A DNA stretch of 64,000 nt, from assembly GCA_004555175.1 (NCBI GenBank), contig SFJE01000004.1:3909-67908 (forward strand), in the 5' to 3' direction. A program made the position numbers and the translations under genes. Under the pieces are notes generated by a model that saw nothing but the letters and a program-made list of their open reading frames with translations, had not been told where the DNA came from and did no database searches. The DNA comes from Lentisphaeraceae bacterium. Lineage in GTDB: Bacteria; Verrucomicrobiota; Kiritimatiellia; RFP12; DVOR01. This document shows, piece after piece, positions 7,065-63,385 of this stretch; positions within the stretch are counted from its first letter, which is position 1; each line of letters opens with the position of its first letter.

Positions 7065-7775
7065 TTACTTGAGGACCTTGCCAAAGCGAGGAACGGCCAA
7101 GCGCTGGGCTTGGGTATACTGGCCATTCTGCGAGGCCACTTGGAGGTCGATGTAAAGGGTGTCGAGATCGGTGTTCCACTGGAAGGCGGTGGTGTCGGCG
7201 GGGGAGACGACGAGGGGGGAGGGGGCGAGCCAGCGCCGGGCAAGGGCGGAATCCTCCTCGGCCTCGGAGTAGGTGAGGCCATTGGTGCCGCTCAGGGAGA
7301 GCGTCTCGGGCGAACTGATGGAGCCGACCTTATGGAAGGTGACGCGCCCGGCAATGACTTGGTCAATGACAACGCTGCAAAGACCTTCATTCTCGCCGGG
7401 GGTGAGGCGGAAGAGGAGCTTATCGCGCAAGTTTCGCAGGGCCACGGAGAGCTCGGTATTGGCAATAATGCTCGCCACGGCTCGCTGGCAGGAGAGGGTC
7501 ACGCTAATCACTTGCCCGAGAATGAGCACGCCGAGGGCGGAGACCATCGTCACCTCCAGGAGGGTCATGCCGGCCCGGCGGGAGAACGGCTTGGGGGTAG
7601 CCCCCTCGGGGCGGGGGTTTATCGACAGGTCTGGGGAGTTATCGACAGGCCCGCGCCGCTTTACATTTTTGTCCGCCCCTACCTCGGGTCGAGGTAGGCC
7701 CTGTCTCGGGTCGAGGTAGGCCCTCCCTCGAGTTGAGGTAGGCGCGGGTGCTTTTTTTGTCTTCTGCGTGGACAT
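7065..7775 (-). CDS. prepilin-type N-terminal cleavage/methylation domain protein (pseudopilin); start uncertain, apparent 69-aa leader
   Basis: Contains FSRRAG/MTLLEVTMVSALGVLILG, i.e. a class III signal with G-M-T-L-L-E. The only in-frame ATG upstream of the Gly is at 7775. The ATG at 7568 would delete the leader. Codons 15-35 are encoded by the CCTACCTCG/CGAGGTAGG palindromic repeats. Confidence 0.6.
   Translation of the reverse strand: MSTQKTKKAPAPTSTRGRAYLDPRQGLPRPEVGADKNVKRRGPVDNSPDLSINPRPEGATPKPFSRRAGMTLLEVTMVSALGVLILGQVISVTLSCQRAVASIIANTELSVALRNLRDKLLFRLTPGENEGLCSVVIDQVIAGRVTFHKVGSISSPETLSLSGTNGLTYSEAEEDSALARRWLAPSPLVVSPADTTAFQWNTDLDTLYIDLQVASQNGQYTQAQRLAVPRFGKVLK
7677..7746. repeat. 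palindromic repeat cluster (CCTACCTCGGGTCGAGGTAGG x2 plus variant), member of CCTACCTCGAGGTAGG family
   Basis: Perfect 9-bp inverted repeats cctacctcg/cgaggtagg occur twice, plus ccctcgagttgaggtagg. The same motif family is at 24378-24457 and 63215-63385. Confidence 0.8.
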
Positions 7776-14978: not shown

Positions 14979-15004
14979 AGGTTAACTTGAGATGACGGTT
15001 AGGA

Positions 15005-15080
15005 GATGACAGATGACAGCGCGCGTGCCGCGGCGGGCAATCTGGGGGCGTCTATCATCTGTCTTCTGCCCTCTGTCATC
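15005..15080. repeat. CTGTCAT/GATGACA heptamer arrays in inverted orientation, upstream of pilT
   Basis: gatgacagatgacag at 15005-15019 and catctgtcttctgccctctgtcatc at 15056-15080. Same heptamer family as 22280, 22388, 31972, 42132 and 49415. Confidence 0.7.
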
Positions 15081-15097
15081 GCGAGCGGTGCGCGCCA

Positions 15098-19701: not shown

Positions 19702-22212
19702 TTACTTCCTTGCCGAGGTGGGCGAGAGGCGCACGCCAAAGACCTTGTAGGTCTTGCCGCCGTGGACGTTGCGGAAGGGGGCCGAGGTGATGAGCCCATT
19801 GCGGTAGGGCGTGCCCGGCGGGATTTCGGCCAAGACGGCCCACTGCGGGGCGCTGGCATCGGGCTTGGCGAGGATTTGGATGTAGCCATTGGGCGCGGCA
19901 CCGAGCGTGCCCATGCCATCGAAGGGCTCGACCATCACCGTGGCCTCAATGCGGTTATTACCCACGCGCCGCACCTCAGCCACGCCGAAGTTGCAGAGAT
20001 ACTGGGCCGAGATGGCTCCCCCAATCAGCGAAGCCTGCGGCCGCAGATTAAGCAGATAGGCCACATTGACCGCCTGTCCGGCATCCATCTCCGGCGTTTC
20101 GGAGGTGGAGCCCTCGAGGGTCAGGCGCAAATCGCCAGCGGCGGAGCGCCCGCGCAAGGCGGCGGCCGTTACGAAGCTGAGTGCTTCGGGGCTCGGCTTG
20201 ACGGTGGCCTCGGAGCCATCGGGGTTGAGGAGCTTGATGTTGAGGTTGCCCATCGCCACGGCATAGGGCACATTGAGCGAGAGGGTGTTGCCCTCCAGCA
20301 CCAGCTCGCAGCCCTCGGGAATATCAGAGCCCATTAAGAAGTCATCGTCCGAGAGGGTGTCCGAGCAGACCTGCCAGGTGAGGATGGGGTTCTTGCCGCC
20401 CTTCATCCCGGTGGGATTGCCGGTAATAATGAGGCTCGAGCCGTGCTGCATTGCCAAGAGCGAGAGGCTTGTCACCTTCCCCGGGGCAATCTCCAACTGT
20501 GCGCCATCCAAGAAGATGCAGCTGCCAGTCACCTTCCCGCCGCCGGCGAGCGTGCCGCCCTTGGCCACAATCAGGTTGCCCGTGCTGCGGATGGTCTGGG
20601 CCTTCAACACCGCATCGCCCTCAATCTGGAGCGACTGCAGCGGCGCAATCGTCAGCTCTTGGGCCTGATGGAGACCATTGGTCAGGCGCACCGGCGCCTG
20701 CACCGTGAAGTTCCGGGAGAAGCTGCCGCCGCTCATCTCCACATTGCCGCCATTGACCAGCAGATCTAGCGGCTTGTTTGGAGAACCCAGCGTGGCGTCC
20801 ACCTTTAGCCCCGAGAGGTGCGGCACCACCCACTTCGTCTGCCCGGTGGGGTCAGCCGTCCGCCCGAGGGTGAGCAAGGGGGCCTCCTGCTGGGTCCAGA
20901 TGCGCCCAGCCACCGTGCCAGTGGCGGCCAGCGTGGTGGGACCGGTCATCTCGATGGCGCTCTCGAGCGTGGCACCAGACTCAATGCGCAGGGCGCCAAA
21001 GCCCTCGCGGTTCAGCTCGCCGCCGCCACTTACGCCAATTTGCGGCGCATCAAAGGCGCCCTGGCCCACCACATAGAGCTGCACGCCCGGGGAGAGAACC
21101 AGCCGCGCCTCGGGGCCGAGCAAAAGCCCGTTGCTGCGTAGCTTCTTCCCGGCGCCTTGGCGCGTGGCATCATCCACCACCACCACCTCGCCCTCAAAGG
21201 TCTGCGCGTTGAGCGTGACCGTAAGGTCAGAGAAGGGGCAGCTAATCTCGATGCGCCCGTGGCCATCAATGGTCAGCGGCTTGGGGTTCCCTGCCTGCGC
21301 CGGCTGAATCCGCAAGGTGCCGCCCTTGAGCGTATGCTGCCACTCCGGGAGCGGCCCCTGCTTGGGCGCCAAGACGCACGAGCCATCAGGAGCGGCTGCC
21401 GGGAGCTCTACGGAAGGCTTTGCCTTCGCCGGTTCGGCCTCCCGCTCGGCCACAGTGGCCTTCACCACCGGCTTGCCTGCCGGCGGGGTTGCGGAAGTTC
21501 CAGACCAGGCGCAGACCTCATCCAGCCGCTCGTAGAGCCCCGGTTTGACGCCCGAGGCTGCGCCGTCACCGTCGCGCCCCGTACCGAGCACCAATTCTGT
21601 CAGCCTGTCATCGGGTCCGTGCTCGGCCGGGACCTTAAGCCGCTCGACTTCGGTGCCGTCAACAAACAGCACGAAGCTCTCATCCATGTAACAAAGGCGA
21701 ATATCGTACCACTGCTCGAGCTCGAGCTTGTTCTTCTCGTGCCAACGGGTCATCCCCTGCACGAGGTTCTGGCCGGCGTTGCGAAAGAGGGCCATCGTGA
21801 TGGGGTTGTTGCTCTTGGGCTCGGCCACCTGCTCGAGGCGGTAGTTGTGCTTGCCAAAGCGAAACCCAAGGATTGGGCGCCAACGCATCCGGCTGCGCGG
21901 CCGCAGACGGAAGGCAATCGTCCACCCCTCCTTCGCCCGCAGCCCTTCAATGCCACTAACCACCCCATAGCGCGTTCCCTGCGCGTTGGAAAAGACCTCT
22001 AGCGCGCTCACCCCCAGTTCATCCATCGAAGGCTTGACCGCCTTCCCCGCCTGCGGACCTTGCAGGACGAAGCTGAGCTTCGGCTTGCCAGACTCCGAGA
22101 CCACCTGATCCACTGCCCCTGGATTGAATGAACATCGCACAGCCACTTCGGCCGGCAGCAACCCTGCCAGCCCCACGGCCAACGCTAAGAAAATCTGTTG
22201 GTCAATCTGCAT
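19702..22212 (-). CDS. large secreted protein (836 aa) with N-terminal LamG/concanavalin-like region and Gly/Thr-rich beta-helix-like repeats; first gene of the pilM-secretin operon
   Basis: Signal peptide MQIDQQIFLALAVGLAGLLPAEVA. A WTIAFRLRP...LCYMDESFVLFVDGTEVERL LamG-like block. Long G/T/L-rich repeats (GGTLAGGGKVTGS). Ends 5 nt before the PilM-like start. Confidence 0.6.
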   Translation of the reverse strand: MQIDQQIFLALAVGLAGLLPAEVAVRCSFNPGAVDQVVSESGKPKLSFVLQGPQAGKAVKPSMDELGVSALEVFSNAQGTRYGVVSGIEGLRAKEGWTIAFRLRPRSRMRWRPILGFRFGKHNYRLEQVAEPKSNNPITMALFRNAGQNLVQGMTRWHEKNKLELEQWYDIRLCYMDESFVLFVDGTEVERLKVPAEHGPDDRLTELVLGTGRDGDGAASGVKPGLYERLDEVCAWSGTSATPPAGKPVVKATVAEREAEPAKAKPSVELPAAAPDGSCVLAPKQGPLPEWQHTLKGGTLRIQPAQAGNPKPLTIDGHGRIEISCPFSDLTVTLNAQTFEGEVVVVDDATRQGAGKKLRSNGLLLGPEARLVLSPGVQLYVVGQGAFDAPQIGVSGGGELNREGFGALRIESGATLESAIEMTGPTTLAATGTVAGRIWTQQEAPLLTLGRTADPTGQTKWVVPHLSGLKVDATLGSPNKPLDLLVNGGNVEMSGGSFSRNFTVQAPVRLTNGLHQAQELTIAPLQSLQIEGDAVLKAQTIRSTGNLIVAKGGTLAGGGKVTGSCIFLDGAQLEIAPGKVTSLSLLAMQHGSSLIITGNPTGMKGGKNPILTWQVCSDTLSDDDFLMGSDIPEGCELVLEGNTLSLNVPYAVAMGNLNIKLLNPDGSEATVKPSPEALSFVTAAALRGRSAAGDLRLTLEGSTSETPEMDAGQAVNVAYLLNLRPQASLIGGAISAQYLCNFGVAEVRRVGNNRIEATVMVEPFDGMGTLGAAPNGYIQILAKPDASAPQWAVLAEIPPGTPYRNGLITSAPFRNVHGGKTYKVFGVRLSPTSARK

Positions 22213-22236
22213 ACTATTGAACTCCTTGCGTTTCTA

Positions 22237-22252
22237 TGCAAACTTCGTGCCA
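22237..22252 (-). promoter_or_regulatory. sigma-54 (RpoN) promoter, -24/-12 elements TGGCACG-aagt-TTGCA, upstream of the 19702-22212 operon
   Basis: Reverse complement of 22231-22260 reads gcgcggtTTGGCACGAAGTTTGCAtagaaa, an exact match to consensus TGGCACG-N4-TTGCW. An AGGAG RBS and ATG at 22212 lie ~20 nt downstream. Confidence 0.8.
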
Positions 22253-22261
22253 AACCGCGCA

Positions 22262-22416
22262 CCTACGGTGCTTGGTTAGCGGACAGCCGACAGCGGACAG
22301 CTGACAGCGCTGGCGCTCGATGTGCAAAACCCGTCTGAGCCGTGAGCGCAACACGATAGGCCGGCGGTTTGTCCGTCGCGTTAGCGGCTGTCCGCTGTCG
22401 GCTGTCCGCTGTCCGC
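22262..22416. repeat. ~150-bp composite element: 4x CNGACAG heptamers, conserved core, 4x CTGTCNG heptamers (inverted); copy A
   Basis: Left arm cggacagccgacagcggacagctgacag (22280-22307). Right arm ctgtccgctgtcggctgtccgctgtccg (22388-22415). Core blocks cagcgctggcgctcga, cccgtctgagccgtga and tccgtcgcgttagcggctgtc are shared with copy B at 31861-32000. Confidence 0.8.
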
Positions 22417-23237
22417 TAGAGGTTAAAAAGGCTATCCTCAAAGCCGCCGTCGTCGGAGGGGGTGGCGGGGGGATCGGCGGTGGGCTCGAGGGCGTGGGCC
22501 ACCGCTTCGCTCAGCCCATCGATGGGGGCGATGGGGGAATCTTGCTCAAAGAGCGAGACAATCTCATCGGCGTGGTTGGCCGTCTTGCGATACTGCTCGG
22601 TGGCGTAGTGGCGCTTCTCGTTGAGCTTTTGGAGGAGATCGCGGATTTCGATGGCCGCCTCGTAGCACATCTCGGTCATCTCCTTGCGCCCGGCCTCGTC
22701 CACCAGATTTAGGCGCATCATCTCCACGCTACTCATCAGCACGGTCATCGGCTGACCAATCGCATGGCAGATGGTGCCAAAGCTCTCCATCATCACGCGC
22801 TGACGCTCCCGCTCGCGCTCCAGGCGCACATCCTGCCACATTGCCGCCGCATCGCGCAAGACAATGACCGCCCAGCGTGGCGGCTGCCCCTGCGCGCCCA
22901 TCTCTTTGGGGGTGGCATTGACTTCCAGCGTCACCTTGGGCTGGGTGAGCTCGGCGGGTTTGGGCGCCTGCCACAACTTCCCGGCGCGCAAGGCTTCCAT
23001 CATCGGCGCAATCCACGCCGGGTTTGGGAACCAGCGCGTGAGCGGCGCCCCCACCGGCAGGCCCCCCTCTGGCTGCGGAAAGAGTTCGCGCCAGACGCTA
23101 TTGGCGTAGAGCAATGGCCCCTCCGGGCTCGTTAATTCGATTACGCAGACGGCCACATTTGCGCGTTCAAGCCCCACATCGAGCATCTCATAGTAGGTTG
23201 CCGGCGGCTTGGGCCGGTCAAATCCAAAGGACATCAT
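22416..23237 (-). CDS. PAS-like + HisKA-like domain protein lacking an HATPase_c domain
   Basis: 273 aa. RERERQRVMMESFGTICHAIGQPMTVLMSSVEMMRL resembles a histidine-kinase H-box dimerisation domain. No N/G1/G2 ATP-binding boxes follow; the C-terminus is an acidic tail. Confidence 0.5.
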   Translation of the reverse strand: MMSFGFDRPKPPATYYEMLDVGLERANVAVCVIELTSPEGPLLYANSVWRELFPQPEGGLPVGAPLTRWFPNPAWIAPMMEALRAGKLWQAPKPAELTQPKVTLEVNATPKEMGAQGQPPRWAVIVLRDAAAMWQDVRLERERERQRVMMESFGTICHAIGQPMTVLMSSVEMMRLNLVDEAGRKEMTEMCYEAAIEIRDLLQKLNEKRHYATEQYRKTANHADEIVSLFEQDSPIAPIDGLSEAVAHALEPTADPPATPSDDGGFEDSLFNL

Positions 23238-23722
23238 ACCCCTTCCTCCTCGTCAACTTCAAGCCATACTTCGTCTAATGTTTCTTCTTCTTCTTCGGCG
23301 GCGGCTTCAGCCGCCTGCGCTTCGGCCAACTCCCGAGCCTGCTGCGCCTCCAACTGCCGGTAGAGTTCTAGGGCAACTGGCCGCTCTCGCGGTAAATCCC
23401 CTTGGTCACTTACCAGCGAGCAGGTTACCGGCCGCCCGGGGTCCCCGAGCGTATAGACCCCACCATTGGGGCATGGGGGCAATTGCCCCGCGTGCAAGAG
23501 CCGCGAGAGGGCATCGTCTCCAAACATCTCCGCCTGTCGCTTGGCCATCGAGAGCTCCCAGCGCTTCATCACGCACCGCTCCCGCGCCTCTTCCGTCCGA
23601 ATCCGGCCGGCCTGCTCCCAACTCCAATAGCCCCCCAACGCCCCCATCACCCCGATAAAAGAAAGCGGCAGCCACCAAGTCCGCGGCCAAATCTGCTGCG
23701 TCTGTGCTGCCGTTTCGGACAT
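23234..23722 (-). CDS. hypothetical small membrane-anchored protein with acidic C-terminus
   Basis: 162 aa with one N-terminal TM (WWLPLSFIGVMGALGGYW) and C-terminal EEEEETLDEVWLEVDEEEGV. Stop overlaps the downstream start (ATGA). Confidence 0.45.
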   Translation of the reverse strand: MSETAAQTQQIWPRTWWLPLSFIGVMGALGGYWSWEQAGRIRTEEARERCVMKRWELSMAKRQAEMFGDDALSRLLHAGQLPPCPNGGVYTLGDPGRPVTCSLVSDQGDLPRERPVALELYRQLEAQQARELAEAQAAEAAAEEEEETLDEVWLEVDEEEGV

Positions 23723-23737
23723 TGCTGCCCCTTCCGA

Positions 23738-23772
23738 AAGTTAAAAGGGCGACCTTCACGCGAAGGTCGCCC
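23738..23772 (-). terminator. rho-independent terminator downstream of the pilin gene
   Basis: Perfect 11-bp stem gggcgaccttc/gaaggtcgccc with 4-nt loop. On the minus strand it is followed by CTTTTAACTTT. Lies ~30 nt after the pilin stop. Confidence 0.75.
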
Positions 23773-23799
23773 CTTCCCAAAGGAGTTCAATCGGGAAGA

Positions 23800-24156
23800 T
23801 TAGTTGGTCGCATCTTCAGGGAGGACGTGGCCCTTCGGACATGAGGTCTTATAGCGGCCGGTGCCATCATCGGCTGGCATCGTATAGGAGCTGTTAGCGT
23901 CAGACGGGCATCTCATCTTGCTGATGGAGATCTTAAGATACTGATTCAGGTGGGTAGCGTCCACGGCTTCCCCATTAATCAAGCACTGCTCAGCAGCGGC
24001 TTCAATCTGCTTCATATTGGCAATGCAGGCGTTCTTCTGGGAGGTCTGCCTAGAGCGGACGAAGTTCGGGACGGCGATGGCGGCGAGGATGCCGATGATC
24101 GCGACCACGATCATAATTTCAACGAGCGTGAAGCCCTGCTTCAACTGCTTATTCAT
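23800..24156 (-). CDS. type IVa major pilin (PilA-like; prepilin with short leader and C-terminal disulfide loop)
   Basis: True start MNKQLKQ|GFTLVEIMIVVAIIGILAAIAVPNF is a classic class III signal with a 7-aa leader. Mature length ~111 aa. Two C-terminal Cys (CPSDANSSYTMPADDGTGRYKTSCP). The ORF in the track extends upstream to 24342 through out-of-context sequence. Confidence 0.85.
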   Translation of the reverse strand: MNKQLKQGFTLVEIMIVVAIIGILAAIAVPNFVRSRQTSQKNACIANMKQIEAAAEQCLINGEAVDATHLNQYLKISISKMRCPSDANSSYTMPADDGTGRYKTSCPKGHVLPEDATN

Positions 24157-24230
24157 TGTGCGAGTACCTTTCTGTACGGTAGCGTGACTATCGAACTGAC
24201 TTGGCACACGCCAAGCTGTCTTTCCTCCTT

Positions 24231-24246
24231 TGCAATGGGCGTGCCA
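24231..24246 (-). promoter_or_regulatory. sigma-54 promoter TGGCACG-ccca-TTGCA driving the pilin gene
   Basis: Reverse complement of 24226-24250 reads gatTTGGCACGCCCATTGCAaaggag. An AT-rich tract (24250-24350, candidate IHF bend) and palindromic repeats (24378-24457) lie upstream, as in enhancer-dependent promoters. Confidence 0.8.
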
Positions 24247-24377
24247 AATCAGGAAGGGCGGGAACTTTTTTGCGCTTCGCTCAAAAGCAGTCTCCCGATT
24301 TCTCATTCCTGTAAAGAGGTTTCTTAGTTTTAAGAATGGCAATTCTCGGGAATGAGAAAAATCCCTTCTCGAAATGG

Positions 24378-24457
24378 CCCAGGGCCTACCCCACCTCGAG
24401 GTAGGGCCTGGGTCACCTTGAGGTAGGGCCTACCCCGCCTCGAGGTAGGGCCTGGGG
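24378..24457. repeat. nested palindromes of the CCTACCTCGAGGTAGG family (candidate UAS / REP-like element)
   Basis: cccagggcctaccccacctcgaggtagggcctggg forms a ~16-bp stem. It is followed by ttgaggtagggcctaccccgcctcgaggtagggcctggg. Confidence 0.8.
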
Positions 24458-24464
24458 GAGGGGG

Positions 24465-24654
24465 GGAAGGGCGCGGCCATTGAAGTGGCCGGGGGTTTTG
24501 AGCCAGGCGCTCGCTTCGCTCGCTGCGCGGCAAATATGCCGCGCCACGGAACCGTTAACGGCAGGAGGAGGGCTGGCCTTTCGGTAAGGGGCTTCCGAGC
24601 CGGGCGGGCGGAGGCCAGGGCGCGGCCATTGGAGCGGCCGGGGGGCTTGAGCCA
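24465..24654. repeat. ~40-bp direct repeat pair (gggcgcggccattgRagYggccggggg..ttgagcca) in G-rich non-coding region
   Basis: Copies at 24465-24505 and 24615-24654 in an ~870-bp stretch with no credible ORF. Track ORFs there are P/R/A-rich frame artefacts. Confidence 0.6.
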
Positions 24655-25029
24655 CCGCGGCCAGGGGCAGGAGAACCGGCGGCACCCAGAGGGCCACCGG
24701 CGGGCCCAAGGCGACGGAAAGGTCCCGAAGCAGCCCCTGGGTCGCGGGGACGCGGCCCCTCAGAACGGGCAAAGCAAAAGGCCCCCCTGCGCCCCGCGCC
24801 GCCGAGCCGCGCTTGGGGCTTGGGGGCGGAGCCCCCAAACGGCCCTTGCTGGGAGGCGCGGCAGCGCATCCCTGCTGCGGAGGCAAGGCGTACCAGGGGG
24901 GTGAACGGTGAACAGAAAGCGGAGGTGCCCGCAGGGCGCCTCTGCCGGGGTGGAGCGCACTGCGCTCCCGAGGTGCAGGGCGAGGAGCCCTGCCTTGGGG
25001 TGCGGGGGCGAGTAGCCCCCGGGTGCCTT

Positions 25030-28000
25030 TCACGCGAGCAGGCAGCAAGCGATGGCGTGACCGAAGAGGATGGAGGTTTTGATGGGGATGAGCTTCCCGC
25101 GCAGGTGGGGGAAGTTATCGGCCCACGCGCCGAGGAGTTCCATCTGGAGCATGCCAGTGGCGGCTTCGGAGGAGCGAATCCGGAGGTCGGTGGGGGCGAA
25201 GCGGATGCCGGTGCCGAGGGCCTTGGAGATAGCCTCCTTGGCGCACCAGAAGCGGAGGATGGCGGTGGGTCCGTCGCCGCTCTTGGTAGCGAGCTCCTGC
25301 TCCTCGAGGGTGAAGACACCGCGGAGGAAGTCCTCGGTGAGGTCGCGATCGACCGATTCGACGTCGAGGCCGATATGGCCGTGGAGGACGCTTGCGCCGA
25401 GGATGAGGCCGGCGGTGTGGGCGATGGTGAGGTCGAGCGGGGCCGAGACCTGGCTCTGCCATTCGCCGACGGGGTGGGGCTTGCCGAGGGCATCCTTCCA
25501 GATAGCGATGTCGGCGGCCGGTTCGTAGAGGTTGAAGTTCTGGAGGAGGAGGCGGCGGACCGACTCCTTGGCGGCGGTTCGGCCGAGGAGCCATTCGAGG
25601 CGGCGGTGGGCGGTACCGCCCATCTGGGCGAAGTTCTCGCGCTCGTTGTGGGTGAGGACGGCGGCGGCGAGGGCCTTGAGCCAGAGCTCCTGGTTGGAGA
25701 CGAAGAAGTCGGGCGCGTCGTTGACGTAGAGGGCGCCGACGACCTCGGCGGTGGGGTCGGGTAAGAGGGTGGCAGGGAGAGGCTGGGTGATGAAGAACTT
25801 GGCCGGGTTCATCACGAAGTCGCGCAAGGCGCGTCCGGCGCGGCCGCTCATCTCCTCCCAGGCCTCGATGGCAAGGATGGGGTGACCGGCGGTGTCGGTG
25901 ACCTGGATGTCGACCTGGAAGGAACGTGGGGTGACGTTGACCAGGCGCAGAGCGCAGCGCAGGCGGGTGCCCTCGGGGACCCAGACGGCGTAGTAGCGGA
26001 TGGATTGGCAGCGGAAGGGGAGGGAGATGGCGCCGTGGAAGCGCTCGTGCGAACGCCAGAGGGGGAAGCCGGAGACCACCGCGTCGAGCAAGAGGGGCAT
26101 GGCGGTGAAGAGGGGGTTGCGGCTGGCGCGGACGGTGGCCGAGCGCGAGGGGATGCGCAGCTCGTAATCGAGGCCGTTGTAGCCCCAGCCCGAGACATGG
26201 CGGACGTTGCGCAGGAGGGGACCCTGGAAGAGGCGGCCGGGGTAGATTTCGCGCGCGTCCCAGTTCACCTGCTTGGGGGCGACGAGGGGCTGGAGTTCGC
26301 CTGCCTCCGGGGCCTCGGGCACGGCCGGGGCAAAGGTGAAGAGCGCCTCCATCACGGGGTGGACCGCTTCGCCCTCGCTTGCGTCGGTACTTAGGCGGAC
26401 GCGGAGGGTAGTCTGGCCTTCGAGCTCGGTGGGCGCGTCGTGGGAGAGGGCGACGCTGATACGCAGGTCGATTTGGCCAAAGTCGAAGGAGAGCCAACGC
26501 GGGGCGCGCAGGTGGGTGATGGCGCAGAGGACGGGGTTGCCCGAACGGCCGGAGGCCGAGGCGAGGAGGAGGCGCTGGGCGGCCTCGGCCATCACCTCCA
26601 GGCCGGTGGGCACGGAGAAGAGGGTCAGGCCGCGCATCTGCGGATCGCTGAGCGAGACGCCCGAGGTGCCGATGGCGTAGTCATTCAGGAAGGGGAAGTC
26701 CTCCAGACGCAGCGAGCAGCGCAGCTCCAGGCGCTCGGCGGTGCGCTCGAGCTCTTGGGCGGTGCGCAGGAGGGGGCCGACGAGGCCGGTGGCGGGGAAG
26801 TTGGAGGGCAGGGCGTGAGCGTGGGTGGCCTGGGTGGCCTCCTCGGCCAAGGCGTTCTCCATCCCGAGGATGCGGTGGGCATCGATGAGTTCGGGGCGGA
26901 TGGCCGGGAGCTCGCGGGTCAGGCGCAGGGTGAGGGTCTCGCTCTCGCCCTCGGCCAAGGGCGTATCGAAGTCCAGCCGCTGGGCGTGGGCGAAGAAGCG
27001 TAGGCCCGAGTAGTCAATCGGCACGCCGTGGGCAGCCAGGAGGCCGGCGGCTTGGCCCACCTGCACGCCACCCGAGCGGTGGAGGATGTGCATCGGGATG
27101 GTGGCAATCGGCTCCTCGCGGCCGGCCAAAATCTTGGCAATGAGCGGCGAGAGGAGGCCGCGGGCACCCACTTCTACAAAGAGGCGGCAGCCGCTCGCGT
27201 ACATTGCCTCGATCATTTGGCGGAAGTGGAGCGGCTCGGCCATTTGGTCGACGAGCGCGCTGACGACCGAGGAGGTGGAGTGACCCATCGGCTGGGCGGT
27301 CACGGCGGAGAAGAAGGTGACCTGCGGCTCGCAGGTGACATATTTGGAGAAGAAGCGCTCGAAGATTTGGCGCAGGCGGATGTCGCGCGCGCCGGTGTTG
27401 AAGGGGGCGAGGAGCGGTTCGGCCACGGAGAGGCCGCCGCCTTCGGCGATGGCGGCTTCCACGGTGGCCCGGTAATCGGGCGCCACGGCCAGGACGCAAT
27501 CGTCGGCGGTCAACTCCTGGGCCACCACCAGTTGCCCATTCGAGGTGGCGGCGAGCGCGCGCAGCTTCTCCACGGCAAAGCCCGAGACGGTCAGTTGCAG
27601 CCAAGGCGTGGCAGTTTCGGTGCCCAGGCGCAGGAGCATCTTGCCGGCATCGCGCAGAATCTGCACCAGGCGCAGCTTGGGATCGTGGTGCGTGGCGTGG
27701 AAGGCCGAGAAGGCGCCGAGCCCCACGCCGCCCACGGCCGCCGGTTGGACGCCTACGCCGCGGAGGAAGTCGGCAAAGACCTTACTGGCGAGGTAGGTGG
27801 AGGCGGAGGCGAGGAGGGGGAGGAAGTCGCGCGAGGCACTGAGGGGGAGGGTGTGCTCGGGGGCGGTGGAGAAGAGCCACTCGGAGGGGGAGGCCACATC
27901 GCAGAAGCCGGCGAAGGCCTCCTCCATATCGTCGAAGCGCTCGCGCACGCCATCGAAGGTAAGGGCTAGGTCGCGCATCATCTCCAGATGGAAGGAGCCG

Positions 28001-28338
28001 GTGCCCGGGAAGATGAAGGCCACCTTGCCGCCCTCGAGGGCCAGCGGACGCGTGGTAAAGAAGATGCCCGACTTATCGCGCAGCCGCGTGCGGCCACTAC
28101 GCAGCGCGTTGAGGGCCATCGTCAGCTTGCGCGCCATCTCCTCGAGCGAGGCCACCCACAGCCCCACCACGCACTGCTTGCCGCGCGCATCCCGGGTGGC
28201 GGTGTAGACCACATCTATCAGCCGCACCCCGCGGCTGCGTTCCAGGAAGGATTGCACGCGTAGGATTTCGGCCTCCAGGCCGCTGAGGTCGCCCGCGCCA
28301 ATCAGGCAGAGGACGCCTTCGGAGCGTTCCAGGCTCAT
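25030..28338 (-). CDS. type I PKS-like multidomain protein: KS-AT linker, acyltransferase-like, dehydratase-like, C-terminal Sfp-type 4'-phosphopantetheinyl transferase; several catalytic motifs appear substituted
   Basis: N-terminal post-KS linker, then FIFPGTGS (AT GQGSQ-like). The GHSxG position reads GVGLG. DH motif is GPLL...FPFLNDYAIGTSGV, i.e. HxxxG with Tyr in place of His. C-terminal PPTase motifs RRLEWLLGRTAAKES, IGLDVESV and FWCAKEAISKALGTG. No ACP DSL motif found. Confidence 0.65.
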   Translation of the reverse strand: MSLERSEGVLCLIGAGDLSGLEAEILRVQSFLERSRGVRLIDVVYTATRDARGKQCVVGLWVASLEEMARKLTMALNALRSGRTRLRDKSGIFFTTRPLALEGGKVAFIFPGTGSFHLEMMRDLALTFDGVRERFDDMEEAFAGFCDVASPSEWLFSTAPEHTLPLSASRDFLPLLASASTYLASKVFADFLRGVGVQPAAVGGVGLGAFSAFHATHHDPKLRLVQILRDAGKMLLRLGTETATPWLQLTVSGFAVEKLRALAATSNGQLVVAQELTADDCVLAVAPDYRATVEAAIAEGGGLSVAEPLLAPFNTGARDIRLRQIFERFFSKYVTCEPQVTFFSAVTAQPMGHSTSSVVSALVDQMAEPLHFRQMIEAMYASGCRLFVEVGARGLLSPLIAKILAGREEPIATIPMHILHRSGGVQVGQAAGLLAAHGVPIDYSGLRFFAHAQRLDFDTPLAEGESETLTLRLTRELPAIRPELIDAHRILGMENALAEEATQATHAHALPSNFPATGLVGPLLRTAQELERTAERLELRCSLRLEDFPFLNDYAIGTSGVSLSDPQMRGLTLFSVPTGLEVMAEAAQRLLLASASGRSGNPVLCAITHLRAPRWLSFDFGQIDLRISVALSHDAPTELEGQTTLRVRLSTDASEGEAVHPVMEALFTFAPAVPEAPEAGELQPLVAPKQVNWDAREIYPGRLFQGPLLRNVRHVSGWGYNGLDYELRIPSRSATVRASRNPLFTAMPLLLDAVVSGFPLWRSHERFHGAISLPFRCQSIRYYAVWVPEGTRLRCALRLVNVTPRSFQVDIQVTDTAGHPILAIEAWEEMSGRAGRALRDFVMNPAKFFITQPLPATLLPDPTAEVVGALYVNDAPDFFVSNQELWLKALAAAVLTHNERENFAQMGGTAHRRLEWLLGRTAAKESVRRLLLQNFNLYEPAADIAIWKDALGKPHPVGEWQSQVSAPLDLTIAHTAGLILGASVLHGHIGLDVESVDRDLTEDFLRGVFTLEEQELATKSGDGPTAILRFWCAKEAISKALGTGIRFAPTDLRIRSSEAATGMLQMELLGAWADNFPHLRGKLIPIKTSILFGHAIACCLLA

Positions 28339-29735
28339 CGGTCAACCTCCTCAAGCACGGCCGCGCCGGCGCGTCCTTTGGCCGAGAGGGTGGAGACGGC
28401 CAGGCGCCGGGGCCGCGTGGAGGAGGCGATCCACGGCCGCGCCTCCTGCACCCAGTAGTAGGCCTGCTCGGGTTCGCGCAGGCGGAAGCTCTCATCCACT
28501 GGGGTGACCGAGGGCGGCAGCACGCGGTGGCTGATGGCGAGGATGCCCTTGAGCAGTCCCAGAGCTCCGGCGGCGGTAAAGGTGTGGCCAAAGGAGGTCT
28601 TGGCCGAGCCGAGGGCTAGGAGGGGAATGTGCGCGCCGCGGTTGGCGGTCATCCGGTGCAAGATGGCCTCCTCGGCAGCATCTTCGGCGGGGATGCCCGA
28701 GCCATTCATCTCCCAGTAGTCGATGTCGCGGAAGGCGTTGGGGAGGCGGCGCAGGGCGCGATGGAGGGCGCGGCGGAGGCTTTCGGGGAGACCGCCTTCG
28801 GCCTCTGGGGCAATGCCAGAGATCTGCGCGCAGCCGTGGAGCTTGGCGTAGACATTGGGCGAACCATTCTTCTGGACTTCGGCCAGGCGCCGGAGGATAA
28901 AGGCTGCGCCCCCTTCGCCGGGCAGGGTGCCCACGGTGCTGAGGGTAAAGGGTTTGAGTTCGCGGCCGGGGCAGAAGGGCGTCAGGGCCGCTTCGCCGGC
29001 CAGTTGGGTCTGTGAGAGGGGCGGCTGCAGGGCCACCACGATGGCTACATCGCACTGATTGAGGCGCAGCGCGTTGGAGGCGGCCTCCAGGCAGGCGAAG
29101 ACTGAACTTTCGCCGGCGGCGCACTGGCAGGCGGTGTCGCACGCGCCAAAGGTTTGGGCCAGTTGGCGGACCACGCCTTCGCCGCGCGCGAGTTCCGGTT
29201 GGCGGCGCTTGAGCAGGGGCAAGGTGGCGGTGAGTTCGCCGCGCAGGGCGGCCATTTGCTCGTAGCTGGCGGTGGGGAAGAAGCGCTGGAGGGTGCCGAC
29301 AATCTGGCCGATGACATTCGCGTGCCAGAGCCAGTTGACGGCGGCGGGGTTAAAGCCGGCATCGTAGCCAACGAAGAGGGCCATGCGGTCGGAGTGGCTC
29401 TCGCCGGGGGGAATGCCGGCATCGATGAGGGCGTCGTCAATGAGCTGGGCGGCGAACCAGAAGTCCGTGTTGTCCCCCACGCCCAAATCTGGCGGCAGGG
29501 GCACGCGGTCGGCGCGGACGGCAAAGCGCTCGCCGAGCGCGGCGGAGACTTCGGGGAGGACGCAATCGGGGAAGAGTTCCTCGGCGGTGTGGCCATCGGG
29601 CGCTTCGGGCAGCGGGGTGAAGAAGCTTTGCTTGCGCAGGATTGCCTTCCAGAGAGCCCGCGGGGTGGGCGCACCGCCAAAGCAACCGCTCAGGCCAGTA
29701 AAGACAACGCTATCGGAGAGTGTGAGCATGGCCAA
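28335..29735 (-). CDS. beta-ketoacyl synthase (type I PKS-type KS domain) as separate ORF; first catalytic His apparently Asn
   Basis: N-terminal VVFTGLSGCFGGAPTPRALWKAIL. Active-site Cys in GACDTACQCAAGESS. EMNGSGIP aligns to EAHGTGT. Second His retained in SFGHTFTAAGA. Stop overlaps the downstream start (ATGA). Confidence 0.7.
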   Translation of the reverse strand: MAMLTLSDSVVFTGLSGCFGGAPTPRALWKAILRKQSFFTPLPEAPDGHTAEELFPDCVLPEVSAALGERFAVRADRVPLPPDLGVGDNTDFWFAAQLIDDALIDAGIPPGESHSDRMALFVGYDAGFNPAAVNWLWHANVIGQIVGTLQRFFPTASYEQMAALRGELTATLPLLKRRQPELARGEGVVRQLAQTFGACDTACQCAAGESSVFACLEAASNALRLNQCDVAIVVALQPPLSQTQLAGEAALTPFCPGRELKPFTLSTVGTLPGEGGAAFILRRLAEVQKNGSPNVYAKLHGCAQISGIAPEAEGGLPESLRRALHRALRRLPNAFRDIDYWEMNGSGIPAEDAAEEAILHRMTANRGAHIPLLALGSAKTSFGHTFTAAGALGLLKGILAISHRVLPPSVTPVDESFRLREPEQAYYWVQEARPWIASSTRPRRLAVSTLSAKGRAGAAVLEEVDR

Positions 29736-29757
29736 GTGTGCGGCAGCGGGGGCGGGC

Positions 29758-30186
29758 TTAGGTGAAGTATTGCAGGCCCTCGGCCAGGACGCGCAGGAGC
29801 CGATCGAGCCGCGCGCAGGAGAGCTCTTCCACCGGGAACTTGCCCTCCAGCATCAGGTCGCCCTCGTTGGTGATTTCCTTATAGACCACTGCGCAACCGG
29901 TCAACCACTCGCCCAGGCGCAGTAGCCCGTAGGCCTCTTCGAGGTTCTGGGGCGGGCGGAGCCAGAGCTTGGCCGAAAGCGCCACCACCGCCCCGCCCTG
30001 CGAGATCTCCGGATTATCGATGAGTTCAAGCAGGCTCTCGCGCAAGACCGGATGGGTGAAGGCCCAAACAGCATAGCCTGGGGTCTTGGTTACTTCCACA
30101 AAGCCTGGCGCGCGGTCGTGCAACCACGCTTCAGCCACCGGAATCTCCTTTGCAAAGTCACAAGAGGGTTTCGCGTTCTGTTTCAT
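29758..30186 (-). CDS. hypothetical protein (142 aa) upstream of KS gene
   Basis: Clean ORF with non-repetitive composition, but no recognisable motif. Confidence 0.4.
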   Translation of the reverse strand: MKQNAKPSCDFAKEIPVAEAWLHDRAPGFVEVTKTPGYAVWAFTHPVLRESLLELIDNPEISQGGAVVALSAKLWLRPPQNLEEAYGLLRLGEWLTGCAVVYKEITNEGDLMLEGKFPVEELSCARLDRLLRVLAEGLQYFT

Positions 30187-30306
30187 ACAGCAGGAATGTT
30201 AGCACGCTTGCAGGCGCTTGGCAAGCGGGGGAGAGGGGGAGAGAGCTGCTAGCTGTTAGCCATTAGCTGTTAGCTCGCTAACCGCTAGCCGCTAACGGCT
30301 AACCGC

Positions 30307-30966
30307 TTATTGACGCGCGAGGAGCGCGTCAAGATTTCCCACGCCCAGGCGCTCGCAGCCCATGGCCAGATAGGCTTCGGCATCGGCGCGGGTGCGGATG
30401 CCGCCGGAGGCCTTGACCTTGATCTTGCCCTTGGCGGCCTTGAGCATTGTCTGGACGGCCTCGGGGGTGGCGCCGTGGGCGGCGAAGCCGGTGGAGGTTT
30501 TGACGAAGGCGGCCCCGGCCTTGATGGCGCAGGCAACGCCCTTGCGGATTTCGGCGGGGGTGAGCAGGCAGGTTTCGAGGATGACCTTGACGGGGTGGGG
30601 CCAGACGGCGGTCACAACGGCGTGAATTTCGTCGGTGATGCCTTCGGTGTCGCCATCCTTGAGGGCGGAGACGTTGATGACCATGTCAATCTCCTCGGCG
30701 CCGTGGGCGATGGCGAGTTGGGCTTCCATCGCCTTGAGGGTGCCGAGGGTGTTGCCATGCGGGAAGCCAACTACGGCCGCGACGATGGTCTCGCTCTCGC
30801 GCAGGCATTCGGCGGCGAAGCGGACGTCGCAGCTCTTGACGCAGAGGCAGCCCACGCCGAGTTCGCGGCAGCGCTCGGCCGCTTCGTGGAGTTGCTCCAT
30901 CGAGGCTTCGGGCTTGAGGATGGCGTAATCGAGGGTCTTGAGGAGGGCTTTATCGGTCATCTTCAA
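30307..30966 (-). CDS. deoC: deoxyribose-phosphate aldolase
   Basis: Class I aldolase motifs VVGFPHGN, FVKTSTGF and KASGGIRT. ~219 aa. Confidence 0.85.
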   Translation of the reverse strand: MKMTDKALLKTLDYAILKPEASMEQLHEAAERCRELGVGCLCVKSCDVRFAAECLRESETIVAAVVGFPHGNTLGTLKAMEAQLAIAHGAEEIDMVINVSALKDGDTEGITDEIHAVVTAVWPHPVKVILETCLLTPAEIRKGVACAIKAGAAFVKTSTGFAAHGATPEAVQTMLKAAKGKIKVKASGGIRTRADAEAYLAMGCERLGVGNLDALLARQ

Positions 30967-30967
30967 C

Positions 30968-31837
30968 TCACTTCTTTTGGAGGCACTGGAAACGGCAGGT
31001 GAGGGTGTGGCTTTCGCCGGGGGCGAGGGTAATCTGGCCGCCGGTGTGGTGCGGGTTGGCCGGCTCCACGCAGACGAAGTGGCGCGGAGCTTCTAGGGGC
31101 AAATCGCCAAAGGCGTGGTCCAGCGGCGGGTGCCAGACCACGACGGCCGCCGCCTCATCGGCCGCCACCGCCACGGTGCGCTCAAGGATGGGGTCCTCCA
31201 GCGCGGCCAGGACGTCGGGCTGCGGGAAGACGGTGTCGATGCCCGTTTCGTCGGAGAAGGTGATGAGGCGATTGTCGATGCCCTGTAGCCGCGCTTGGCG
31301 GGCATCGCCCAGGCGCAGATAGGCGTGGAGCGCCTCGCCGAAGGTGAAGGGCACCTCGCCGCGGTTGCGGGTCTGCAGGTCGAGCGTCAGGCAGTCGCCC
31401 AGGGTGATGGTCAGGCGCAGTCGATAGGGGAAGGGGAAGGCTGGGTCGGTGGCCTCGGCATCGGTCAGCTCCAAGGTCAGCGCGGTTTCGTTGGCGCTAT
31501 ACTCGCTCTCGACCGGGTGCCAGAGGGCGCGGCGGGCGAAGCCGTGGGCGGGCGAACCGGGCGGGTAGCCCGCCGGCGCGGCGCCAAACCACGGCCAGCA
31601 GATGGGAATGCCGCCGCGGATGGCCTTCCCGGCCGAGAAGTCTGCCAGGGGGCTCAGGTAGAGCGCGTCGCGGTGCCCGAGGGGGCGGTAGGAGAGCACC
31701 TGGCCGCCGTGGAGGGCTACTTCGCAGACGGCCTTCGGGGCCACCAAGGCAACAATCGCGCCCTCGCCGGGACCCTCCCGGAAGGCGATCCGCCCGGCTG
31801 CACCAAAGCGGCGATTGAGATCTAGAATATCGTTCAT
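30968..31837 (-). CDS. D-hexose-6-phosphate mutarotase (aldose 1-epimerase family, YeaD-like)
   Basis: GGIPICWPWFG motif and overall ~290 aa size typical of the glucose-6-phosphate 1-epimerase family. Confidence 0.7.
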   Translation of the reverse strand: MNDILDLNRRFGAAGRIAFREGPGEGAIVALVAPKAVCEVALHGGQVLSYRPLGHRDALYLSPLADFSAGKAIRGGIPICWPWFGAAPAGYPPGSPAHGFARRALWHPVESEYSANETALTLELTDAEATDPAFPFPYRLRLTITLGDCLTLDLQTRNRGEVPFTFGEALHAYLRLGDARQARLQGIDNRLITFSDETGIDTVFPQPDVLAALEDPILERTVAVAADEAAAVVVWHPPLDHAFGDLPLEAPRHFVCVEPANPHHTGGQITLAPGESHTLTCRFQCLQKK

Positions 31838-31860
31838 CGGGAGTCCTTTGGGGAGTGAAT

Positions 31861-32000
31861 AGCTGACAGCGGACAGCGGACAGTTACCAGCGCTGGCGCT
31901 CGAGGAGGAAGCCCCGTCTGAGCCGTGAAAACATTCTCATTGGGCCATCAACCTTTCCGTCGCGTTAGCGGCTGTCATCTGTCATCTGTTATCTGTCATC
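31861..32000. repeat. composite heptamer-array element, copy B (CNGACAG x3, conserved core, CTGTNAT x4)
   Basis: ctgacagcggacagcggacag at 31863-31883. Core cagcgctggcgctcga, ccccgtctgagccgtga and tccgtcgcgttagcggctgtc. Right arm ctgtcatctgtcatctgttatctgtcatc at 31972-31999. Homologous to 22262-22416. Confidence 0.8.
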
Positions 32001-32003
32001 TCT

Positions 32004-32255
32004 TCAATACAGCTTCTCAAAGGCGCCTTTGTCGACGCGTTTGAGTTTGTGGAAGCCGGCGGACTTGGCGCGGTCGTCGAGTTTGGATTTGCTGCGGCCG
32101 AGGGCGGGGGCGGAGATGAGTTTGACGATAGGTGCACCGCACTCGGGGCAGGCGGTGAGCGGGGGCTCATCGAGCCGGCGCATGGCCTCGAAGCCCGCGC
32201 GGCAGACTGGGCAGGCGTGCGCGGGGTCCTGGGCCTGATAGTCATACATCGGCAT
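32004..32255 (-). CDS. FmdB-family zinc-ribbon protein
   Basis: 83 aa with MPMYDYQ..CPVC...CPECG, the two CxxC pairs characteristic of the FmdB putative regulatory protein family. Confidence 0.8.
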   Translation of the reverse strand: MPMYDYQAQDPAHACPVCRAGFEAMRRLDEPPLTACPECGAPIVKLISAPALGRSKSKLDDRAKSAGFHKLKRVDKGAFEKLY

Positions 32256-42098: not shown

Positions 42099-42159
42099 AG
42101 GAGAGAGGGCCTGTCCGTCTCGGCACGCGTGCTGTCATCTGTCCTCCGTCATCTGTCAT

Positions 42160-42190
42160 CGTCTTAACAGTACGGGCGCGGCAATTGCCG
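42160..42190. terminator. bidirectional rho-independent terminator between convergent genes (perfect 12-bp palindrome cgggcgcggcaa/ttgccgcgcccg)
   Basis: acgggcgcggcaattgccgcgcccgtgctgttaatctg lies between the MBL hydrolase (plus) and galE (minus) 3' ends. Confidence 0.7.
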
Positions 42191-49414: not shown

Positions 49415-49449
49415 GATGGCAGATGGCGGATGACAGATGACAGATGGCA
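49415..49449. repeat. GATGRCR heptamer tandem array (5 units), same family as the CTGTCAT arrays
   Basis: gatggcagatggcggatgacagatgacagatggca, upstream of the DJ-1 gene. Confidence 0.7.
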
Positions 49450-57276: not shown

Positions 57277-57351
57277 GTGGGCGGTGACGGACTCGAACCG
57301 CCGACAGCCTGAGTGTAAATCAGGAACTCTAACCAACTGAGTTAACCGCCC
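57277..57351 (-). tRNA. tRNA-Val (anticodon TAC)
   Basis: Reverse complement folds as a cloverleaf: acceptor gggcggt/accgccc, anticodon loop ttTACac, T-loop ggttcgagtcc. Confidence 0.85.
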
Positions 57352-57373
57352 AATGGGGTGCGGTAGGAGAAAA

Positions 57374-57458
57374 TGGTGCCGGGGGAGGGACTCGAACCCT
57401 CACGCTTTAGGGGCGGCAGATTTTGAGTCTGCTGTGTCTGCCATTTCACCACCCCGGC
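57374..57458 (-). tRNA. tRNA-Leu (anticodon CAA), long variable arm, encoded CCA
   Basis: Reverse complement gccggggtggtgaaatggcagac...ctCAAaa...gggttcgagtccctcccccggcacca. 85 nt with a type II long variable arm. Confidence 0.85.
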
Positions 57459-57465
57459 TAAAGGA

Positions 57466-57541
57466 TGGAGCGGGTGAAGGGAATCGAACCCTCGTAGCCA
57501 GCTTGGAAGGCTGGAGCTCTGCCATTGAGCTACACCCGCGC
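57466..57541 (-). tRNA. tRNA-Gly (anticodon TCC)
   Basis: Reverse complement gcgcgggtgtagctcaatggcagagctccagccttCCaagctgg...gggttcgattcccttcacccgctcca. Confidence 0.85.
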
Positions 57542-63080: not shown

Positions 63081-63214
63081 TATGCCACACTTCCCGCAAA
63101 AAAGCGAGCGTAGCGAGCATCTCGCGCAAGGTGCTCGCTATCGCGGGGGGTCTTGCCCCCTGCCCCCCATTGGCGGGCCGCCTCCGGAATCTCCGGGAAT
63201 CTCCGGATGATCCG

Positions 63215-63385
63215 GCCTAGCGCGCATCGGCCTAGGCCCTACCTCGAGTTGACCTAGGGCCTACCTCGAGGTGATCTAGGGCCGACCTCGCCTTGACCTA
63301 GGCCCTACCTCGCCTCGGCCTAGGGCCTACCTCACATCGACCTAGGGCCTGCCTCGAGTCGAGCTAGGCCCTATCGCGAGCGCAG
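63215..63385. repeat. tandem array of ~7 degenerate 21-23-bp units (CCTAGGGCCTACCTCGAGGTGA-like), flanked by ~25-bp direct repeats
   Basis: Units: gcctaggccctacctcgagttga, cctagggcctacctcgaggtgat, ctagggccgacctcgccttga, cctaggccctacctcgcctcgg, cctagggcctacctcacatcga, cctagggcctgcctcgagtcgag, ctaggccctatcgcgagcg. Flanks: agcgagcatctcgcgcaaggtgctc (63112-63137) and agcgagcatctcgcagttgcaaaagtgctc (63449-63478). Confidence 0.8.

Follow-up and report, generated by a model that had tools for sequence, protein, structure and literature searches.

Enterobacterial BIMEs (bacterial interspersed mosaic elements) and the intergenic mosaic elements of Neisseria consist of palindromic units with linker motifs and lie between genes, mostly at their 3′ ends; repetitive extragenic palindromic (REP) sequences and REPINs, the hairpins formed by REP doublets, occur in tens to hundreds of copies in each genome; short tandemly repeated repetitive (STRR) arrays of heterocystous cyanobacteria are intergenic tandem 7-nt units, of several types per genome and variable in copy number; and the invertons of gut Bacteroidales are invertible promoters flanked by inverted repeats. 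REP doublets and REPINs are mobilised by REP-associated tyrosine transposases (RAYTs) (Bertels and Rainey; PMC3116915, PMC3337134). [quoted passage not shown] Here we describe two copies, A (22274-22419, + strand) and B (31855-32003, + strand), of an element of ~145 bp in a 64-kb stretch of contig SFJE01000004.1 from a Lentisphaeraceae bacterium (hereafter the window), together with the anatomy, distribution, polymorphism, inversion and constraint of the family to which they belong. We put at roughly 0.6 the probability that copies A and B are clade-restricted, non-autonomous, hairpin-forming intergenic mosaic repeats, nearest to REPINs, BIMEs and MITEs. The family is one of previously undescribed, fast-turnover repeats, familiar in kind and closer to known bacterial repeats than to any novel sort of gene; its new aspects are the heptamer arms, an invariant internal block and a documented turnover within a species.

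Block 1 (CAGCGCTGGCGCTCGA, at 22305 and 31888), block 2 (CCCGTCTGAGCCGTGA, at 22330 and 31913) and block 3 (the 21-mer TCCGTCGCGTTAGCGGCTGTC, at 22372 and 31956) each have exactly two exact matches in the window, both on the + strand, and follow one another in identical order in copies A and B, which are 83% identical over an alignment of ~160 nt. By comparison, none of 100 shuffles contained any match to the 21-mer at up to 3 mismatches. Tandem Repeats Finder (TRF) detects period-7 arrays to either side of each copy; these flanking arrays consist of inverted NGACAGC heptamers, and the resulting arms are 32 nt long and 91% complementary in copy A, and 36 nt long and 72% complementary in copy B. 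The original prediction, made from this DNA alone, of two homologous copies that share three blocks in one order and are bounded by inverted heptamer arrays is borne out by these matches. The boundaries first given (22262-22416 and 31861-32000) were roughly right, the true ends, at about 22274-22419 and 31855-32003, being slightly wider.

On its 5′ side the element comprises an outer terminal motif (about GTGAATAGC / GCTATTCAC), an expandable NGACAGC array and the GC-rich palindrome of block 1; the 3′ side continues with a 5-nt spacer, block 2, a locus-specific segment of ~28 nt, the block-3 hairpin and the inverted heptamer array. The left arm of copy A (22274-22307) reads GGTTAGC and then four heptamers, GGACAGC CGACAGC GGACAGC TGACAG (TRF period 7/14); block 1 (22305-22324, CAGCGCTGGCGCTCGATGTG, an exact match to copy B) contains the palindrome AGCGCTGGCGCT; the locus-specific spacer CAAAA (22325-22329) and block 2 (22330-22344, CCCGTCTGAGCCGTG) follow; and a locus-specific variable segment of 27 nt (22345-22371) leads to block 3 (22372-22392), the right inner inverted repeat with its small hairpin CGC-GTTA-GCG, and to a right arm (22387-22419) of GCTGTCN heptamers with a GCTAG end. 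The left arm of copy B (31855-31887) opens with the terminal motif GTGAATAGC, found again at other copies, and continues TGACAGC GGACAGC GGACAGT TAC; its core (31888-31976) is made up of block 1 (31888-31907), spacer (31908-31912), block 2 (31913-31927), variable segment (31928-31955) and block 3 (31956-31976); and the array of its right arm (31971-32003) has been homogenised to CTGTCAT, where the orthologous contig L010 has CNGACAG-type units.

Block 3 is the inverted partner of block 1, ~60 nt away, and the two are diverged inverted copies (GACAGC-GCTGGCGC vs GACAGCCGCTAACGC). The element further contains an inner motif pair (GCTGGCGC / CCGTCGCG), an inner inverted repeat (CGCTGGCGC / GCGTTAGCG) inside the outer motif, and short inverted ends of the core proper (CGCTGGCG / CGCTAACG), while CCGT(C/G) direct repeats are common to blocks 2 and 3. 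The single ORF (open reading frame) that spans copy A has no conserved equivalent in copy B, so the element is non-coding; a small protein is likewise ruled out by block spacings that differ by non-multiples of 3 and by the absence from copy B of the copy-A ATG. A 130-aa ORF (22320-22712, +) begins inside copy A, antisense to a real gene, and is by its codon-position GC a spurious frame created by the element.

We then searched for the block-3 20-mer in one genome per species across 185,579 species, and found it at 16 loci in only three metagenome-assembled genomes (MAGs), two of Candidatus Spyradenecus and one of a human-gut Kiritimatiellae bacterium; the window, which corresponds to ENA contig ERZ27309572:k141_69187, comes from a related species and is 88-93% identical to these MAGs. 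Each match lies in the same arrangement of heptamers, CAGCGCTGGCGCTCGATGTG, 5 nt, CCCGTCTGAGCCGTG, ~28 variable nt, TCCGTCGCGTTAGC and inverted heptamers. A core profile search of the DNA examined from the window's genome and the three MAGs returned 20 full copies, which represent 13 distinct loci; more than one species has the element at 6 of these. Two full copies and 4 partial or related elements fall within the 64 kb of the window. That only copies A and B exist, which the original prediction had named as the outcome that would count against it, is contradicted by these 20 copies and by the diverged relatives described below. In JGI (Joint Genome Institute) metagenomes the pattern of blocks 1 and 2 had just 3 matches, all unrelated and due to chance; a phage origin was rejected, as the block-3 20-mer had no match in viral contigs; and ~42 kb of DNA from relatives that share 67-81% protein identity held neither period-7 arrays nor the GCGAGC modules considered below. 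Because matches occur in the three MAGs only, and metagenomes, viral contigs and outgroup DNA gave no real ones, the family is confined to a genus-level clade of gut Kiritimatiellae. No description of a heptamer-armed family was found in the literature on Spyradenecus or on heptanucleotide repeats, or in Rfam.

The blocks are strongly conserved. Across six orthologous pairs whose flanking genes are 78-95% identical at third codon positions, the blocks show 1 difference in 336 positions, when 46 would be expected at the third-codon-position rate; block 1 has 1 difference in 120 positions and block 2 none in 90 (12.4 expected at that rate). The spacer and variable segment differ at 11 positions (27 expected), and the right arrays outpace third positions (32 differences seen, 21 expected). 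Between paralogues, the blocks are 95-98% identical and the spacer and variable segment 37%, which is near random. Block 1 averages 95% identity among 12 distinct loci, and the central 13 nt of block 2 are invariant in 18 of 18 copies found via block 3; block 3 was used for ascertainment, and blocks 1 and 2 were not. Gene conversion explains block 2 poorly, since this block is isolated between two non-homologous stretches. The variable segment of copy A is identical in its orthologue on contig L009, even though third codon positions of the flanking genes there are only 78% identical. Constraint on the blocks is strong and not absolute, because population alleles at locus B, the site of copy B, carry block mutations. 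All five of these mutations (in L027, L031 and L033) are + strand C-to-T changes, a pattern suggestive of strand-specific deamination.

At orthologous sites, copies have been gained, lost, partly deleted, replaced and occasionally flipped in the core, and arrays have changed by whole heptamers and been homogenised. Four relatives (67-81% epimerase identity) have at locus B a gap of 7-25 nt between the Zn-ribbon and epimerase genes, with no element. Ten contigs that encode an identical Zn-ribbon protein and share 97-100% nucleotide identity with the window are divided among 3 empty, 1 footprint and 6 filled alleles: the empty allele (L026, L029 and L030; 97.7% identical to the window) is a 14-nt gap, the footprint (L035) is 36 nt with a single heptamer, and the six filled contigs carry 2-4 heptamers per arm and few point changes. 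Divergence near the junction is just mildly raised, which rules out deeply diverged haplotypes around the empty allele. In the conspecific contig L020 (98.7% identical), the same site holds a different core, of 63 nt. Different samples yielded seven distinct filled alleles at locus B (nine loci if identical contigs are counted), and these have one orientation throughout.

Other sites show further steps of this turnover. At locus A, contigs L038 and L039 contain a different family member, with GACAGTC arms, beside an identical 273-aa flanking protein. The site at 30244 bears a full canonical element in L010, a block-3 remnant with a partial duplication in the conspecific L020, and arms only in the window, where they form a core-less hairpin (30244-30307, +) of AGCTGTT / GCTAACC heptamers. 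One arm differs by two heptamers between copy A and L009, whose right arm has two fewer, and again between L001 and L012; copy B has, on one side, an array homogenised to a unit other than that of L010. Between L002 and L006 a core of ~80 bp is inverted while flanks and arrays stay colinear; orientation is kept in the other 5 of 6 orthologous pairs. The dinucleotide TA flanks the right end at 10 of 13 loci and the left end at 6-7 of 13, possibly as part of the inverted repeat. A link between element orientation and replication strand was ruled out, the sign of the local GC skew being mixed. A tandem partial duplication (array, block 1, block 2) lies at L016:6333-6383, directly upstream of a full copy at L016:6408-6499. 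The Logan contigs L020 and L037 end inside or beside heptamer arrays, so that the repeats fragment short-read assemblies of the genus.

All 13 loci, with real genes chosen by codon-position GC, are intergenic and adjoin a stop codon: at 7 loci the element runs antisense to a pair of co-directional genes, at 3 it is sense within such a pair, 3 loci lie between convergent genes, and 0 of 13 between divergent genes. Arms abut or include stop codons (TAG within ...ATAGC...), and the flanking genes are unrelated among the loci. Copies A and B each sit between co-directional minus-strand genes, and the gene coordinates agree with the earlier statement that both follow a minus-strand stop and precede another minus-strand gene. 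The gene upstream of copy A (22416-23237, -; 273 aa, no Pfam match) has its stop codon in the element's terminal CTA (the last GCTA), and the downstream gene (19702-22212, -; 836 aa, with a weak LamG-like domain) starts 63 nt from the opposite end of the element. Upstream of copy B, the gene for the 83-aa Zn-ribbon protein (32004-32255, -) has a stop codon (32004-32006) that abuts the right arm; downstream, an aldose/hexose-6-phosphate 1-epimerase gene (30968-31837, -) has its start codon 17 nt from the terminal motif of copy B (31855) and 26 nt from the first heptamer.

Neither copy has a sigma-70-like promoter or an intrinsic terminator, and no candidate promoter of the extracytoplasmic-function (ECF) or sigma-70 type was convincing. 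A sigma-54 promoter in block 1 (TGGCGC-N5-GTGC, at the right spacing) was rejected because its -12 GC is present at 5 of 13 loci only, and an integration host factor (IHF) site in the variable part was rejected as not conserved. Outside the elements, a sigma-54-type match, TGGCACGAAGTTTGCA, runs on the - strand from ~22252, between copy A and the start of the 836-aa gene at 22212, and a near-consensus sigma-54 promoter, TGGCACGCCCATTGCA, runs on the - strand from ~24246, upstream of pilin-like genes; both are conserved in L009.

Of the described systems, REPINs share with this family two GC-rich imperfect palindromes in inverted orientation (here block 1, AGCGCTGGCGCT, and block 3, CGC-GTTA-GCG) around a less conserved spacer, in a hairpin of ~100 nt. 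Both are extragenic, mostly at gene 3′ ends, persist vertically across related species, and conserve the palindromes rather than the middle. In contrast to REPINs, for this family no RAYT was found in the ~250 kb examined; it lacks a GTAG-type 5′ motif and has an apparently low copy number (4-7 exact block-3 matches per MAG), and it has an invariant block 2 and a stem lengthened by heptamer arrays, neither of which is found in REPINs. BIMEs and the neisserial mosaic elements resemble it in their modular inverted palindromic units and conserved linkers in varied combinations and, for BIMEs, in a location mostly at gene 3′ ends, the modules of our family being heptamer arrays, at least two core types and GCGAGC-N3-GCGAGC. 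They differ in that the sequences are unrelated, the phylum is another and the main stem here is a period-7 array, and no sign of IHF, gyrase or Pol I binding emerged for our family.

Correia elements and other MITEs are similarly short (~100-160 bp, under 300 bp), non-coding and multi-copy, with inverted ends around a conserved core, present or absent by strain and situated beside genes; TA stands at most element ends, with no unambiguous TA duplication seen. The ends of our family are heptamer arrays of variable length, whereas Correia elements have a fixed 26-bp inverted repeat, and the family differs also in having no detected promoter or IHF site and no sequence similarity. The MITE-like character first proposed is largely upheld, in copy number, lack of coding, inverted arms and presence/absence and replacement polymorphism, but no clear target-site duplication was found, nor, in the ~250 kb examined, a parent transposase. 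STRR arrays have in common with the arms intergenic tandem 7-nt units of several types and in variable copy number, and differ in phylum and units and in that the arrays here are mostly inverted pairs around a conserved core. Integron attC sites were ruled out: GTTAGCG and GCTGGC do not fit RYYYAAC ... GTTRRRY, and copies are scattered over many contigs, amid housekeeping genes and in both orientations.

Several observations weigh against our interpretation of copies A and B as mobile hairpin-forming repeats. No HUH/Y1-like transposase or recombinase ORF is present in the ~250 kb examined, and no gene or gene family recurs next to the 13 loci. Exact block-3 matches number 4-7 per incomplete MAG, an apparently low copy number far under typical REPIN populations, and block 2 has no counterpart in REP/REPIN models. 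No clear target-site duplication appears at the 13 loci or in the comparison of locus-B alleles, and between filled and empty alleles the whole 14-nt gap is replaced, which is more than a simple insertion. The five block mutations among the population alleles at locus B correspond to a per-site rate about that of the variable part. The arms of copy B are just 72% complementary because the right array became CTGTCAT while the left remained CGGACAG, and the relative at L011:5430-5525 has non-complementary arrays, with ATGACAG units to the left of a short core and GCTAACC units to its right; given these mismatched arms, the stem is not strictly maintained and the hairpin is not universal in the family.

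The mobile unit might instead be the ~90-bp core alone, a palindrome-ended insertion that would target the centre of pre-existing heptamer hairpins much as REP sequences are targeted by some insertion sequences, with the arrays as a separate host-side or independent feature; we consider this unlikely. Hairpins or arrays without a core do exist (30244-30307 and 49415-49449), but the hairpin at 30244 seems derived, given the full element in L010 and the block-3 remnant in L020. Different cores sit between similar arrays at one site (L020 and the window) and the core has short inverted ends of its own (CGCTGGCG / CGCTAACG); against this, locus-A alleles vary both in array type and in core, the L035 footprint shows that the core was lost together with most of the two arrays, and outgroup relatives have neither arrays nor cores. 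In L002 and L006, arrays are colinear up to the core edge and only core orientation differs, an arrangement that would also suit a phase-variable inverton, in which a site-specific recombinase flips the core between its arms and thereby switches a neighbouring gene. Like invertons, these are homologous short segments with flanking inverted repeats in a gut bacterium, and one locus occurs in both orientations with unchanged flanks. We nonetheless judge an inverton highly improbable: orientation differs in only 1 of 6 orthologous pairs and is fixed in all seven distinct filled alleles examined at locus B, no invertase was found and no recombinase gene recurs near copies among the 13 loci, the core and its surroundings hold no promoter-like site (the sigma-54-like -12 GC of block 1 being limited to 5 of 13 loci), and most copies lie downstream of a stop codon within co-directional gene pairs. 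The segment is also far shorter than an inverton; at ~80 bp it is very short for synapsis of double-stranded sites, whereas template switching commonly inverts loops at hairpins.

The original prediction had also raised a structured non-coding RNA, acting in cis within a message or as a small RNA, with a long closing stem; in its fullest form, blocks 1-3 would be the scaffold and the ~28-nt segment a candidate guide. Copy A folds at -93.9 and -81.6 kcal/mol on the two strands (z = -7.3 and -6.7), copy B more weakly (z = -3.2 and -2.6). In almost all copies folding favours the + strand over the - strand, owing to the two G-U pairs of GCUGGCGC/GCGUUAGC, but the predicted transcript of most copies is the - strand. 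The block-3 hairpin retains G-N-N-A loops (GUUA, GUGA, GUAA), and the spacer and variable segment, random-like between loci, change less than expected between orthologues. A CUCG/UGAG helix is 100% paired in 22 sequences, and its two one-sided changes, at the variable block-1 sites, are both compatible, a weak point in favour. Further copies were indeed found beyond the window, but covariation of the aligned copies yielded no compensatory pair: none among the 32 pairs of RNAalifold, which predicts the closing stem only, none among 18 hand-specified pairs of the closing helix (94% paired) and no two-sided change among the 4 CUCG/UGAG pairs, in a test that has little power because the helices are nearly invariant. 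Neither strand has a consensus structure inside the core, and complementarity of the variable segment to nearby DNA is limited to chance-level 10-12-mers. Rfam has no match on the element at gathering score in a search of the whole window and none in 22200-22480 at E<=10, which rules out a known RNA family; a gene-specific riboswitch or leader is ruled out by unrelated downstream genes (LamG-like, aldose epimerase) and the lack of a recurring family at the 13 loci. Copies may be sense, antisense or between convergent genes, the core can flip, some members have non-complementary arms, and sigma-70-like promoters and intrinsic terminators are absent; a functional RNA is, on this evidence, distinctly unlikely. 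It is very doubtful, too, that the element is a host protein-binding module (for a nucleoid-associated, DNA-bending or enhancer-binding protein) kept for chromosome or transcription architecture and not for its own spread. Blocks of 15-21 bp, almost invariant between species, present in either orientation and with CCGT(C/G) direct repeats in blocks 2 and 3, would suit such a site, and the core centre of copy A lies ~95-110 bp upstream of the sigma-54-type promoter, a typical activator-site distance; yet a sigma-54 promoter is near copy A only (1 of 13 loci), the core has no conserved IHF-like consensus, and conspecific strains may have an empty site with no evident compensation. We hold as a long shot that blocks 1-3 with their 5-nt and ~28-nt inserts form a single-stranded module (RNA or an extruded DNA hairpin) with a guide-like variable part, or that a dedicated mechanism makes the heptamer arrays, which would then be an STRR-like system outside cyanobacteria with a conserved partner sequence, or both.

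For a mobile hairpin-forming repeat, the inner palindromes would be putative cis sites for a mobilising or recombining enzyme that acts on a folded strand, by analogy with REP/RAYT, and block 2 a further putative protein-contact site. Heptamer arrays would expand and contract by replication slippage, and the core could be flipped by recombination or template switching between the inverted arms. Copies may persist only just after stop codons. Where a copy is co-transcribed, it would give the upstream message a very stable predicted stem at its 3′ end (for copy A, -94 kcal/mol), and this stem could serve as an exonuclease barrier or an RNase III site between adjacent genes in either core orientation.

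Diverged relatives of the family have other heptamers (GACAGTC, GATAGGC, ATGACAG, GGTTAGC) and other cores; their left inner end retains GCTGGCGC or a different GC palindrome, their right inner end YCGTCGCG with a small GC hairpin, and the loop of the block-3 hairpin is GTTA, GTGA or GTAA. In L038 the block-3 motif is present at both ends, inverted. A type II hairpin in the window (14986-15085, +) has GATGACA / CTGTCAT-type arms and a spacer of 32-36 nt that begins with the type II left end CAGCGCGCGTGCCGCGGCGGG, a sequence present at L015:4066 and L008:2440 too; left hairpins of type II differ by a compensated pair (GCGCG/CGCGC vs CGCAC/GUGCG). A right half-element (42110-42160, +) consists of the block-3-like TCCGTCTCGGCACGCG followed by a CTGTCAT array, without a left partner, and is comparable to L013:720-830 and L011:5430-5525. 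A solitary array of five heptamers (GATGGCA/GATGACA) occupies 49415-49449 (+).

Other repeats and features accompany these elements. The GCGAGC-N3-GCGAGC module, counted as GCGAGC-N(2-5)-GCGAGC or its complement, occurs 28 times in 207 kb, at 7470, 24509, 63104 and 63376 in the window and at 24 other sites in L001-L020, often at the outer edge of an array or beside other tandem repeats. A separate intergenic family of 22-bp tandem repeats is found at 7677-7743, 24381-24453 and 63214-63373 (for example GGCCTACCTCGCGTCGACCTAG, seven times), with 42-bp units in L003:6571-6800, and often adjoins the GCGAGC-N3-GCGAGC module. GC skew is positive on the + strand nearly throughout the window (maximum 0.156) though most genes are on the - strand, and is therefore not set by the coding strand. 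A cluster of three tRNA genes lies at 57278-57539 (-).

REP sequences, BIMEs and MITEs are well studied in proteobacteria and almost unknown in the Planctomycetes-Verrucomicrobia-Chlamydiae (PVC) superphylum and in uncultured gut lineages. Here, a site in one species is seen empty, as a footprint, filled and replaced, so that the life cycle of a repeat can be observed in public metagenomes. The arrays also have a practical effect, in that they break short-read assemblies and create spurious ORFs. The heptamer arms recall the STRR arrays of cyanobacteria, and the internal block is almost invariant; the mobilising enzyme, if found, could represent a new REP/RAYT-like pairing.

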